A stretch of 64,000 nt of DNA, taken from assembly GCA_964354805.1 (NCBI GenBank), contig CAYHBD010000030.1:6800-70799 (forward strand), written 5' to 3'. Source of the DNA: an uncultured archaeon (lineage in GTDB: Archaea > Iainarchaeota > Iainarchaeia > Iainarchaeales > GCA-2688035). Every line of letters starts with the position of its first letter. Within the stretch, counting starts at the first letter, position 1. Under the pieces are notes generated by a model, which was not told the origin of the DNA, did not search any database, and saw only the letters and a program-made list of their open reading frames with translations. Below, piece after piece: positions 14,537-24,756 of the stretch. The position numbers and the translations under genes were made by a program.

Positions 14537-15037
14537 ATGAAAAACGGGGGTTTTTTGGGTCCAATTGGGGATGATTTGCCGAGCCTGATTCCGCTGCTTT
14601 TTGCTTTAATGCTTTTTTTTTATGCTTTTACATCTGCTTGGAATAATTTTGACAGGAGGAATGAGGATTTTGCCGATGACCTGGCAGTGCTCAGGGCAAG
14701 CAATGCATTGAGGGGAAACAATTATATTGCGGGAATTGAAAAATTCAATGAAAACTGCGAGACAGCGAAAGGAACCCAGAGAATGCACTTTTTGGCCGGA
14801 TTGCTGCCCTTGCCTACAGGGAAAGATGAGCAATTTGTTGGAATTGATACTGAAAAAATAGTCAGCGGCGATCAAAGCTTTTTTGAAGACTTTCAATGCA
14901 GCAGCACTGAGGAAATACCCGTGCTGGAAAGCGAAAAAAGCGTTGTTAGGTTCTTTCCTGTTGCCTTGGAAACAAAAGAGGAAAACGACAAGTTTTATGT
15001 AAAGCCGATGTTGCTGGTGGTCATTGCATGGAAATAA
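14537..15037 (+). CDS. Pilin-like / membrane-anchored hypothetical protein
   Basis: MKNGGFLGPIGDDLPSLIPLLFALMLFFYAF. Start chosen at ATG 14537. The track ORF starts at 14498. Confidence 0.4.
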   Translation: MKNGGFLGPIGDDLPSLIPLLFALMLFFYAFTSAWNNFDRRNEDFADDLAVLRASNALRGNNYIAGIEKFNENCETAKGTQRMHFLAGLLPLPTGKDEQFVGIDTEKIVSGDQSFFEDFQCSSTEEIPVLESEKSVVRFFPVALETKEENDKFYVKPMLLVVIAWK

Positions 15038-15849
15038 AGCTTGGCGAAAAAGGTCCTGTTTTGCGAAGCCTATTTTCCCCAGGCTTTTGCAACAGCAAAA
15101 GGCTGTTGCGAAGCAAAACCCATTTCCCTGGGATTTTTTGCACGCGAAGCAATTTTCCCAAGGCTTTTTCACGAAGTGAAAAAGGCTTAAGCGAAAAAGG
15201 CCAGTCCAGTTTGACTGATTCCATGTTTTTCCTGGTAATAGCCAGCATTTTGAGCACTTGGCTTTTCTATTCAAGCGCAACCTACGGCCTGACAATAGAC
15301 CAGCAAATTTCAAGGCAGGGCAGGGAGGAATACACCAAGTCTGCGCTTGAAACAATTTTGTACAGCAGCGCGCCGAGGCAGGCAGGCCTTTCTTTGGAAG
15401 AAGCATCAGAGATTGACTACCTGCTTGCGGCAATAAAAGAGGACTACGCTGATGACACTGAACTGGATGAAACAAAAGCAATTCTTTTCCAGAACATAAA
15501 TGCCGTAATGCAGCCGCTTGCAACAAACAGCAACTACCTTTTCTACATATATATTGCTCAAAAAAATAAATTTGTTGTCACTTTTTTGTACGCAAGCGAA
15601 GCAAAAAACGATGACGGCTGGAGCTTAACCGGCAACAAAATTGTTTTTTCCTGCGTGCCGCCAAGCAAGCAGGCAGTGGAAGAATTCCTGCTTACGGTTG
15701 GCAGGATGTCTGTCAGCAACAGCAGAATTCAGCTGCTTGAATCAAAAGAGCCGGCTCCTGACAGATACGATGCCCTAATCACTTTAATCACTTGGATTCC
15801 AACGCCAGTTGATGAAAGCGACCTAAACTGCACTAAATTCACTGGCTGA
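15028..15849 (+). CDS. Type IV pilin-like protein whose leader peptide carries a 147-nt repeat array
   Basis: ATG 15028 with SD GGTGG. Removing 15056-15202 gives MEIKLGEKGQSSLTDSMFFLVIASILSTWLF. The ORF reads through the array in frame. Confidence 0.6.
   Translation: MEIKLGEKGPVLRSLFSPGFCNSKRLLRSKTHFPGIFCTRSNFPKAFSRSEKGLSEKGQSSLTDSMFFLVIASILSTWLFYSSATYGLTIDQQISRQGREEYTKSALETILYSSAPRQAGLSLEEASEIDYLLAAIKEDYADDTELDETKAILFQNINAVMQPLATNSNYLFYIYIAQKNKFVVTFLYASEAKNDDGWSLTGNKIVFSCVPPSKQAVEEFLLTVGRMSVSNSRIQLLESKEPAPDRYDALITLITWIPTPVDESDLNCTKFTG
15056..15202. repeat. Array of hairpin-repeat family modules (147 nt) flanked by GCGAAAAAGGTC / GCGAAAAAGGCC
   Basis: Direct repeats at 15044-15055 and 15191-15202. 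Hairpins at 15084-15090/15095-15101 and 15164-15172/15176-15184. The 27 nt at 15134-15160 are identical to 13131-13157. Confidence 0.85.
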
Positions 15850-21868: not shown

Positions 21869-22603
21869 CTAAATCCTGAGCGCGAATGTTTCCCTCTTTT
21901 TCTGTTTCCCTGTCCTGTCAACTCCAATCAGCTTGAATGTTTTCGTTGCATCTGTTTTGAATTCTTTTTCCAGCTGCTTTACAGCCAAGGCAGCTGCTTT
22001 TTTTGATCCGACTATTGCATCGATTGAGTTTTTTTTCTGTGTTGCGGAAACAATTGCGGCCAGACCGTCTCTTTTTTGCAGGGATGCGAGCAATTGCCTC
22101 AGCCTGTTGAAAGCAGCAGCTGCTTTTTCCCCCCTAAGCTGCACTATTGCCTCAAAGTAATTGCTTTTCAGCTTCATGCAAGCATCGCACTGCATTGCGG
22201 GAAAAGAGATTGTTGTTTTCCTTTCAACCAGAACAGGCGTGTTTTCAATTACGCCCTTTGCCGTTACGATTGCCTGCATTTCCTTTTCACTCAACCGCTG
22301 CAATTCAACTGACAGGGCAGCATCTGTCAGCTCCTTAACCTTGCATTTTTTTTTGACGAACTGCTTCAATAGTTCCAAGTCAAAAGCGTGCATTTTCCCT
22401 GAAAGCAAAATTTTTCCGCATTGCTTGCAGCGCTGCAACTCGATTTTTTCAGGCAACTGCAGAAGCGTGTGCTCTTTCAGGAAGCACTGGAGGCAGCTGC
22501 CCCTTACAAAAAGGCTGTCTGTTGCACCGCAGCTCGGGCAAAATAATCTGCCCAAAGCCTTTTTGCCTTTTGGCAAAAAGCCTTGGGAAAAGTTGCTTCG
22601 CAT
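21869..22603 (-). CDS. NMD3-family protein (archaeal homolog of the ribosome export adaptor)
   Basis: N-terminal double zinc motif FCPSCG...CLQCF...CKQCGK. Start set at ATG 22603, 4 nt after the upstream stop. The track ORF extends to 22645. Confidence 0.7.
   Translation of the reverse strand: MRSNFSQGFLPKGKKALGRLFCPSCGATDSLFVRGSCLQCFLKEHTLLQLPEKIELQRCKQCGKILLSGKMHAFDLELLKQFVKKKCKVKELTDAALSVELQRLSEKEMQAIVTAKGVIENTPVLVERKTTISFPAMQCDACMKLKSNYFEAIVQLRGEKAAAAFNRLRQLLASLQKRDGLAAIVSATQKKNSIDAIVGSKKAAALAVKQLEKEFKTDATKTFKLIGVDRTGKQKKRETFALRI
22551..22601. repeat. Hairpin-repeat family copy forming the first 16 or so codons of the NMD3-like gene
   Basis: Gene-sense sequence GCGAAGCAACTTTTCCCAAGGCTTTTTGCCAAAAGGCAAAAAGGCTTTGGG, with a 9-bp hairpin CTTTTTGCC/GGCAAAAAG. 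It encodes RSNFSQGFLPKGKKALG, similar to the peptides encoded by the pilin arrays. Confidence 0.75.
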
Positions 22604-22607
22604 CCCA

Positions 22608-23450
22608 TTAACCCACCTTGAGGAATTGCTTTTTTTCAAAGCCAAAGTAGAAAACAGTACTTAACACGTAGTAGTATGTGGCAAAAACTGCCAGCAGAAA
22701 CCTTACCACTATCAATAAGGAAAAAACAGCCAATTGCTGAAGCAAATTCTGTGGCCCTATTAACCATACATCAACGCTTAAGAAAATACTGATGCCCATC
22801 GTTAAAAGAAAAAAAATGAATGCTTTTATAATATTTGTGTTGTGTTTAAACGAAACTGATACTGTTTGCTTAAGTGTTTTGGAAAAATTTAAGTTCTCTA
22901 AAGAGCCAATGGGGTAAATCAAAAAATATATGAATATAAACCAAAAGAACATTGCCAATAAAGCCGCAAAAACCAAGATTGCAGACAAAAATAAATCCCC
23001 TGATAAATAGGATGTGTAAGCAAACCAAGTAAGTGGCAACCAAACAATAAGGATTGCCACCAAAGCGGCAAATAAGGGCATAAAAATTTTTCCGAAGTGA
23101 TGCAAAACATTTTGCAATGCATTCTTAAAAGATATTTTTCTCTTTTTATAATAATCTTGGACCATTGGGGGATACATCGGATTTATAAGAAAAAAATCAA
23201 TCGAATCAACTGCCAGACTGTATAAGGCAATAATAAGCATAGAACCGATTATATCCAACGCCCTACTTAATTCACTGCTGCTCAAATTATATGGATTCAA
23301 AAGGGACGTATCCAATTGAAGCCCGTAATAGGTAAGCAGAATAAATGCAGGCAACTGAAAGAATGCAACCAGAATCTTCGGAATGAACAGTTTGGGGCAC
23401 ATTCGCAGCAGAAGAAAGCTGTCAACCATGATTCTGTAAAAGCTCATCAA
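22608..23450 (-). CDS. Polytopic membrane protein, hypothetical
   Basis: 280 aa with at least six hydrophobic helices. No catalytic motif recognised. Confidence 0.5.
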   Translation of the reverse strand: MMSFYRIMVDSFLLLRMCPKLFIPKILVAFFQLPAFILLTYYGLQLDTSLLNPYNLSSSELSRALDIIGSMLIIALYSLAVDSIDFFLINPMYPPMVQDYYKKRKISFKNALQNVLHHFGKIFMPLFAALVAILIVWLPLTWFAYTSYLSGDLFLSAILVFAALLAMFFWFIFIYFLIYPIGSLENLNFSKTLKQTVSVSFKHNTNIIKAFIFFLLTMGISIFLSVDVWLIGPQNLLQQLAVFSLLIVVRFLLAVFATYYYVLSTVFYFGFEKKQFLKVG

Positions 23451-23478: not shown

Positions 23479-24756
23479 TTACTCGTTTAATGCAATTTTT
23501 TTCCCAAGCTGCGGGACAATTGCCTCAATGCCTGTTTCTTCTTTTATTTTCTGCCTGAAAACATCAATCACTTCCTTGTCTCCGTGCACAAGCAAAACTT
23601 TCTCAGGCTGCCATTTCTTTATTGCATGCAGCATTTCCTGCTGCGAGGCATGCGCACTAAAATCAAATTTTGCAACCTTTGCTTTTACGTCATATAATTG
23701 ACCGTCAATCTCTATTTTATTTGTTTCCATAAGCATTCTGCCTGGCGTTCCTTCAACCTGGAAGCCCGTAAGGAAAATGCCGCTTTTCTCGTCATTGTGC
23801 AATCTCTTGATGTAATCAAATATCGGGCCGCCTGTAAGCATGCCTGATGTCGTAACAATTACGCCAGGCTTTTTCAATACCTTATTCCTTGCGCCCTTGT
23901 TCTTAACCCAGCTGGCGTGCTTTAATGCCTTTTGCAGCTGTTTCGGGTCCTTTAAATATTCAGGGAAGCGCATTGTTGCAAGAGCAACCCTCTGACCCAT
24001 TCCATCCAAATAAATTGGCGCATTCACCTTGTGCTCGAACAATATATCAATTATTTCCTGGCTTCTCCCGACAGCAAAAGCAGGCACCAAGGCAAAGCCC
24101 CCTTTTTCAATCGTGTTCTGCACTTCCTCTATAAAAAGTTTTTCGCACTCTTTCCTTTTTGGATGATTCCTGTCGCCGTAAGTTGACTCAATCGCAAGGT
24201 AATCGACCTTTCCAGTATTCAAGTCCGCTCCCTTGAACAAGCGAGTTTCCTCTGGCTTGAAATCTCCAGTATAGAGAAGGGTCTTTTCCCCCATTGCCAA
24301 TTTCACCATCGCGCTTCCGAGAATGTGCCCTGCATCAAAAAGGGTCATTGAGCAATGCTTGGTTATATCTAATTTTCTTTTGTAAACAGCAGGGAAAGTG
24401 AAACGTTCCGCTTTCGCTATATCCTCTTTTGAAAAAGGGACATTCTCGCTTTCCATTCCCGCAATATGCAGGCTGTCAAACCACAAAATTTTGCACAATT
24501 GCAGAGTCGGCGGGGTCATGTATGTAAGGAACTTGCTTTCAACAAAAAGCGAGGGCAGGCTTCCGCTGTGGTCCAAGTGCGCATGGCTTATTATTACTGC
24601 ATCTAGGTTTGTCTGGATAGGCAGCGGATCGAATGTTCCCTGCGGGAGCAGCTTTACTCCCCTTTCAAGCAGAAACTTTTCCCCGCTGTCAACAAGGAAA
24701 CTGCTTCTGCCGACCTCGTTGCATCCGCCTAACGCAGTGAAAGAAACAGGCCGCAT
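23479..24756 (-). CDS. Beta-CASP / metallo-beta-lactamase ribonuclease (aCPSF2-like, no KH domains)
   Basis: ISHAHLDHSG (HxHxDH), ESTYGDRNHP and the C-terminal LVHGD motif. Confidence 0.85.
   Translation of the reverse strand: MRPVSFTALGGCNEVGRSSFLVDSGEKFLLERGVKLLPQGTFDPLPIQTNLDAVIISHAHLDHSGSLPSLFVESKFLTYMTPPTLQLCKILWFDSLHIAGMESENVPFSKEDIAKAERFTFPAVYKRKLDITKHCSMTLFDAGHILGSAMVKLAMGEKTLLYTGDFKPEETRLFKGADLNTGKVDYLAIESTYGDRNHPKRKECEKLFIEEVQNTIEKGGFALVPAFAVGRSQEIIDILFEHKVNAPIYLDGMGQRVALATMRFPEYLKDPKQLQKALKHASWVKNKGARNKVLKKPGVIVTTSGMLTGGPIFDYIKRLHNDEKSGIFLTGFQVEGTPGRMLMETNKIEIDGQLYDVKAKVAKFDFSAHASQQEMLHAIKKWQPEKVLLVHGDKEVIDVFRQKIKEETGIEAIVPQLGKKIALNE

Follow-up and report, generated by a model that had tools for sequence, protein, structure and literature searches.

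Where does translation of the NMD3-family gene begin in the 64,000-nt stretch of DNA analysed here (the window; an uncultured archaeon of the order Iainarchaeales, GenBank assembly GCA_964354805.1, contig CAYHBD010000030.1, positions 6,800 to 70,799), and did a repeat supply its start codon? The gene lies on the reverse strand, and its first codons coincide with a copy of a short hairpin repeat, hereafter the element. Comparison with related loci confirmed, at the level of sequence, a lineage-specific in-frame insertion of this apparently mobile repeat two codons into NMD3. The favoured scenario, which we regard as probable, is that the element was inserted between codons 2 and 3, that the ancestral GTG start decayed, and that ATG 22603 took over as the start. 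The source genome is a metagenome-assembled genome (MAG) of 49 contigs and 1.38 Mb, 88.5% complete, and the locus is interior to an 82-kb contig. The features at the site are the following.

22601..22603, reverse strand: present ATG, lineage-specific, straddling the left edge of the element
22604..22606, reverse strand: GGG, the presumed decayed start, at the position of the ancestral GTG
22607-22604, reverse strand: spacer TGGG between the upstream TAA and ATG 22603
22608..23450, reverse strand: upstream gene, encoding a 280-aa multi-pass membrane protein, with its stop codon TAA at 22610-22608
22614..22618, reverse strand: Shine-Dalgarno (SD)-like AGGTG, still within the upstream gene near its end, 10 nt ahead of ATG 22603
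22554..22601, reverse strand: hairpin-element copy of 48 nt, GCGAAGCAAC TTTTCCCAAGG CTTTTTGCC AAAA GGCAAAAAG GCTTT
22592..22601, reverse strand: 5' module GCGAAGCAAC of the element, including a GC-GAA-GC mini-hairpin
22559..22580, reverse strand: main hairpin of the element, with a perfect 9-bp stem (CTTTTTGCC / GGCAAAAAG) and an AAAA loop
22553..22555, reverse strand: rival in-frame start TTG, whose product MGRLFCPSCG.. would lack one residue compared with the ancestral MKGRLFCP
21869..22603, reverse strand: NMD3-family coding sequence, 244 aa from ATG 22603, with the first CxxC codons at 22540-22529

The comparison set comprised 40 genomes of the same order, no same-genus genome among them, and NMD3 was detected in 39 of the 40. 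In family relatives the NMD3 start lies 3-6 codons before FCPxCG. The closer database homologues P0002-P0006 were 79-86% identical to the window protein and 229 aa long, vs 244 aa in the window. The alignment with archaeal NMD3 homologues that the earlier note on this DNA, made from the letters alone, had proposed as a check was thus carried out, and the N-terminal peptide of the window protein was found in none of the 40 same-order genomes and in none of six closer database homologues. At the DNA level, precisely these 48 nt were missing in seven close loci, among them L021, L022, L023, L025, L026 and L027, and the junctions read as follows.

L021, L022, L023 (empty): ...CAAGGTGGCC TAG GTG AAG GGC AGA TTA TTT TGC
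L025, L026, L027 (empty): ...CAAGGTGGGC TGA t GTG TCC CTT AAC CTT TTT TGT
Window (filled): ...CAAGGTGGGT TAA t GGG ATG [48 nt] GGC AGA TTA TTT TGC

The gain in the window is exactly 48 nt (16 codons), in frame, between ancestral codons 2 and 3, and these empty-site loci bear out the proposal that an insertion had occurred at the extreme 5' end of the coding sequence. The insertion boundaries agree with positions 1/2-49 of the element family profile and are uncertain by about 1 nt, or by 1-2 nt at the left edge. The codons GGC AGA TTA (G-R-L) are ancestral and lie outside the element. The repeat-encoded stretch of 16 codons that had been claimed to follow the start is real, but 17 residues had been listed for it; the zinc motif FCPSCG is near the repeat but does not follow it directly, as ancestral G-R-L stands in between. 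Target-site duplication was not seen at the junctions GGGAT/GCGAAG and GGCTTT/GGGCAG when compared with the empty site GTGAAGGGCAGA, and no terminal inverted repeats were found at the insertion, the two ends of the element not being inverted repeats of each other. As an observation apart, the native 5' coding sequence of NMD3 at 22530-22553 on the reverse strand (GGGCAGAUUAUUUUGCCC) folds into a 7-9-bp hairpin directly downstream of the insertion point.

The same alignment bears on the start codon. Across the end of the upstream gene the window aligns without gaps (CAAGGTGGG-TTAATGGG in the window vs CAAGGTGGG-CTGATGTG in L024, L025 and L026), with the stop codons in register. Opposite the GTG that starts the gene in each of the seven close loci, the window has GGG. 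The codon after the old start is ATG in the window and AAG, TCC or CCA in relatives. GCGAAGCAA begins with the G of this ATG, and in the family consensus, too, GCGAAGCAA is preceded by a T, as in the ATG; the start codon would thus be at least partly supplied by the repeat, with its G, or perhaps its TG, being the first base or bases of the element. The A may come from a mutated ancestral AAG or from a variable base at the element flank. The ATG had been assigned to the flank of the repeat, and the text GGGATGCGAAGCAAC is indeed present at the site. That the start codon may even come from the repeat, as had been suggested, is accordingly upheld for the most part, namely for the loss of GTG and for the G (perhaps TG) of ATG. 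Judged from these sequences, no canonical start lies near the conserved ribosome-binding site except the one built at the element edge.

We propose the following history. In the ancestral layout the upstream stop would have been followed by 0-1 nt and then by GTG AAG GGC AGA TTA TTT TGC, and because this layout left no intergenic room, the element would have landed within the coding sequence. The 48-nt modular hairpin element was inserted in frame between NMD3 codons 2 and 3, and the insertion would have survived because its length is a multiple of three and it carries no stop codon. The old GTG would then have decayed to GGG, and the adjacent ATG, with its last 1-2 bases derived from the element, would have taken over as the start. 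ATG 22603 would still be served by the conserved AGGTG and lie near the upstream stop codon, and translation from it would give an NMD3 with 16 element-encoded residues.

The step of this history that matters most to the protein is the choice of start, and we consider it fairly likely from the sequence that NMD3 translation starts at ATG 22603. The reading frame from this ATG is MRSNFSQGFLPKGKKALG-RLFCPSCG, and the peptide MRSNFSQGFLPK is predicted for a start at ATG 22603 and not for one at TTG 22555. The AAGGTGG columns in the tail of the upstream gene are invariant in the alignment with close relatives, an SD motif precedes NMD3 in all relatives, and the spacing from AAGGTGG to GTG in the empty alleles is 6-7 nt. 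The genome clearly uses SD motifs, with a genome-wide GGTG peak 5-9 nt upstream of ATGs. Several points weigh against ATG 22603. Its spacing of 10 nt from the SD motif is at the weak edge of the 5-9 nt optimum, usable and suboptimal, and the AUG is partly paired in the minimum-free-energy (MFE) fold, within a GGGAUGC-GAA-GCA..UCCC structure. The open frame through the element says little about translation, since the element lacks stops in any frame. An error of consensus or assembly could have turned a GTG into the GGG, the same insertion is known from one genome only, and a start at TTG 22555 would give the near-ancestral N-terminus MGRLFCP. Two further in-frame codons, TTG 22645 and TTG 22639, were rejected as starts; they overlap the upstream gene, lack an SD motif and have no counterpart in relatives, in which the frame is closed by a stop.

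The alternative that survives best, although we hold it to be unlikely, is that the element is effectively intergenic and the start has moved to TTG 22555-22553, so that the product (MGRLFCPSCG.., 228 aa) would have a near-native N-terminus, the 48 nt would be a spacer or RNA hairpin, and the ATG would be incidental. The TTG lies exactly at the place of ancestral codon 2, GTG and TTG starts are frequent in the lineage, most family copies look extragenic or gene-proximal, and the openness of the element in every frame makes the open frame uninformative. However, no GGTG, GAGG or AGGT occurs within 30 nt upstream of the TTG in a genome that uses SD motifs and at a gene for which all relatives have one, and the TTG is separated from the upstream stop by 52 nt and comes right after the 9-bp hairpin. 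A start at TTG also leaves the canonical ATG beside the decayed GTG unexplained. Finally, the similar insert in L024 leaves no other start to choose, which means that it must be translated. In that locus (L024:3001-3090) a separate 69-nt insert of the same family stands directly after the NMD3 GTG (GTG CCA GCGAAGCAATTTTCCCAAC...GGCTTT ACG CAT CTT TTT TGC), and no other in-frame ATG, GTG or TTG was found before the zinc motif, so the insert has to be part of the protein. Its sister L025 is empty at this N-terminal site.

A second insertion site was found in NMD3 after EINEK (about residue 104 of the window protein), where the units are in the opposite orientation. L024 (3001-3948) carries four tandem 48-nt units there, adding 64 aa (SLLPSAKALGKNGLRQ three times plus a variant), and L021 (28-765) carries one 48-nt unit; the site is empty in the sister alleles L025 and L022 and in the window. 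The maximum-likelihood tree from 229 shared columns was (window,((L021,L022)92,((L024,L025)90,L026)83)), in which the filled alleles are separated with 90-92% bootstrap support. The window and L024, whose alleles are filled at the N-terminus, do not group as sisters, and neither the length nor the structure of their inserts is the same, while the internally filled L021 and L024 are each sister to an empty allele. On this topology two independent gains per site appear more parsimonious than a single gain with several later losses, each of them perfectly precise. The recurrent gains are hints, without proof, of preferred target sites. It is doubtful that the element family preferentially targets coupled stop/start junctions and first codons, donating start codons and N-terminal peptides, with NMD3 as a hot spot; if that were true, the family would, in DPANN archaea, repeatedly reshape essential genes at their 5' ends. 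A second genome with the same insertion as the window was not found in two protein searches, and a metagenome scan gave only the known empty-site contig.

The element belongs to a large family in the source genome. The 9-mer GCGAAGCAA occurs 68 times in the 1.38 Mb, vs about 10 expected on both strands, and TTTCCCAAGG occurs 75 times vs about 3 expected. A search with nhmmer using the window copy alone returned dozens of genomic copies, down to E=1e-5, and two profile rounds yielded 119 distinct copies. The window copy matches the family profile over positions 1-49 with 55.5 bits, a score to be read with the fact that the profile was itself seeded from this copy. The family consensus is TGCGAAGCAATTTTTCCCAAGGCTTTTTTCCAAAAGGAAAAAAGGCTTT, which opens with TGCGAAGCAA. 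In 60 of 128 cores, a perfect stem of 7-10 bp follows directly, and these stems comprise 24 different sequences; the main hairpin is kept by compensatory change across the family. Where both landmarks were located, the unit length was 46-59 nt, and nothing in the element thus fixes its length at a multiple of three. Neither the consensus nor the window copy contains a stop codon in any of the six frames. Stop-free frames of at least 120 codons contain 76 of the 119 copies, several of them deep in long open reading frames (ORFs). Among these 76 copies, 36 lie within 100 nt of the 5' open end and 9 within 100 nt of the stop. This bias was discarded as evidence; because the element is stop-free in six frames, an extragenic upstream copy would look the same, and the counts cannot separate copies in 5' untranslated regions from N-terminal coding copies.

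The likeness to peptides of the pilin arrays that had been noticed earlier was also real, as RSNFPKAFSRSEKGLS is present in the pilin ORF at 15028..15849, encoded by the same frame of the same element. The two-module motif was also found in other Candidatus Iainarchaeum MAGs, an occurrence that puts the source organism within the Iainarchaeota (DPANN). In one of them (UBA10036; L031:3660-3780) a two-module element stands 7 codons after an ATG (MAEKKEN/AKQFSQGFLQSKKAF/AKLF...) within a 419-codon open frame, and this copy may, from its sequence, represent a further case of N-terminal insertion, in another genome. Elsewhere, at L029:7352-7430, an element copy directly abuts what seems to be a tRNA gene's 3' half, lying on the other strand (GGGAATCGAACCCGG). 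A search of Rfam for a known RNA family gave only sub-threshold noise and was set aside, no bacterial-type promoter or terminator pattern was found at the locus, and no description of repeats in the Iainarchaeota lineage was found in the literature.

The host protein is well supported as an NMD3. It matched PF04981 (NMD3) with E=5.4e-35 and 121.5 bits (cut-off 24.9), over profile positions 1-243 of 243 and residues 22-244, so that the match begins at C22, the first zinc-binding Cys. In alignments with homologues, C22, C25, C37, C40, C59, C62, C139 and C142 were invariant or nearly so. A profile search of the PDB matched human and yeast NMD3 at E of about 5e-18, whereas nothing was matched there with the single sequence. 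The AlphaFold2 model of the 244-aa protein had a mean predicted local distance difference test (pLDDT) score of 88.9, and the top 11 Foldseek matches in the PDB were all Nmd3 chains of pre-60S particles, the best being yeast Nmd3 (E=1.4e-13). The protein thus shares with NMD3, the 60S export and biogenesis factor (PF04981; yeast and human structures 5T62, 6N8K and 6LU8), a regular core, four CxxC pairs and the NMD3 fold. It lacks the C-terminal extension of eukaryotic NMD3 with nuclear localization and export signals, as expected for archaea, and it differs from its archaeal relatives in having 21 residues before the first Cys, where theirs have 3-6.

This N-terminal tail is the product that a start at ATG 22603 would add. 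Residues 1-17 had a pLDDT below 50 in the model, vs 87-97 for the rest, and the element-encoded part (16 residues) is predicted to be a basic, Gly/Lys-rich, disordered tail before the first zinc knuckle. In the PDB profile alignment, the first Cys of eukaryotic NMD3s is preceded by about 14-21 residues. Because the tail is flexible in the model and eukaryotic NMD3s have a similar N-terminal length, it is most likely tolerated and neutral.

The upstream neighbour is a constant companion of NMD3. In 19 of 19 family relatives inspected, and also in close relatives, the NMD3 start lies 0-20 nt beyond the end of the membrane-protein gene. It was stop/start-coupled to NMD3 in all Iainarchaeales relatives examined. 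The 280-aa membrane protein gave no Pfam match. A gene for a beta-CASP/RMMBL nuclease (23479-24756) sits upstream of it.

Could the insert, or the GGG, be an assembly error, or could NMD3 be inactivated? The fragmented and incomplete state of the MAG speaks for an artefact, but we think it very improbable. The gain is a clean 48 nt, in frame and with a perfect hairpin, in the interior of a long contig; over its other 227 residues the protein shares 86% identity with relatives and retains all zinc-binding Cys; the structure model is confident; the protein is the single NMD3 match in the source genome; and independent assemblies of relatives show the same phenomenon elsewhere in the gene. Removal of the element from the mRNA by the tRNA-splicing endonuclease, as a bulge-helix-bulge (BHB) intron of the cbf5/kae1 type that would leave a mature message with the short N-terminus, is likewise very improbable, for a strict hBHBh scan of 22480-22680 gave 8 candidates vs 7.3 +/- 3.2 in shuffles, none of which brackets or cleanly excises the element, the MFE fold shows a simple hairpin, in which there is one bulged U and a G.G mismatch and not two 3-nt bulges 4 bp apart, and nothing needs removal from an insert that is in frame and stop-free.

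With insertion and start takeover at ATG 22603 retained as the preferred history, the element can be set beside known repeat systems. Repetitive extragenic palindromic (REP) sequences are extragenic by definition, are mobilised by RAYT transposases (REP-associated tyrosine transposases; Y1 HUH, IS200/IS605-like) and carry a GTAG-type tag. The element resembles bacterial REPs and bacterial interspersed mosaic elements (BIMEs) in being a short, modular hairpin that is found in arrays, varies in its stem in a compensatory way and has a short conserved motif at its flank; in contrast, the window copy is intragenic, within a coding sequence, and its motif differs from the GTAG-type tag of REPs. Two Y1_Tnp genes of the source genome encode IS200/IS605-type Y1 transposases (PF01797) and lie at C35:614-967 on the reverse strand and C13:1382-1729 on the forward strand (103 and 100 bits). 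By analogy they are candidate mobilisers of the hairpin repeats, and recognition of the hairpin in single-stranded DNA by a Y1 transposase is a candidate mechanism of mobility. In the literature, no account of such REP/RAYT systems in archaea was found. [quoted passage not shown] The window insertion differs from MITEs derived from insertion sequences (IS) in having no visible IS-matching terminal inverted repeats or target-site duplication.

The closest known system in behaviour appears to be the Rickettsia palindromic elements (RPEs), palindromic repeats of about 100-150 bp that lie in frame within conserved housekeeping genes (Ogata et al., 2000; reviewed in PMC10969869); the resemblance would be one of behaviour and not of ancestry. 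Like RPEs, and as judged from sequence, the element is a multicopy hairpin repeat with an in-frame, stop-free insertion in a coding sequence that is absent from orthologues. As in RPEs, the encoded peptide would lie in a structurally tolerant place, and both kinds of element are apparently selfish, not adaptive. The two differ in host, bacteria for RPEs and a DPANN archaeon here, and in size, a modular 48 nt, with family units of about 43-59 nt, vs about 100-150 bp. The window copy further differs in standing two codons after the start and in the apparent replacement of the start codon, and the family also forms tandem arrays (four units in the NMD3 of L024). The locus provides clean filled and empty alleles, at 79-86% identity, of what appears to be a selfish hairpin repeat in an essential, coupled archaeal gene, five bases after its start, and a start codon handed over to the repeat edge would mean that such elements can rewrite gene starts. 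For annotation, repeats would make the proteins of these MAGs vary between strains in N-terminus, start codon and length, and gene callers can be expected to place the starts inconsistently. Set against RPEs, the case introduces no new principle; it would carry the "selfish DNA inside proteins" known from Rickettsia over to DPANN archaea, whose reduced genomes have little intergenic space, and add a start-codon handover, exact filled and empty alleles and recurrent insertions in NMD3.

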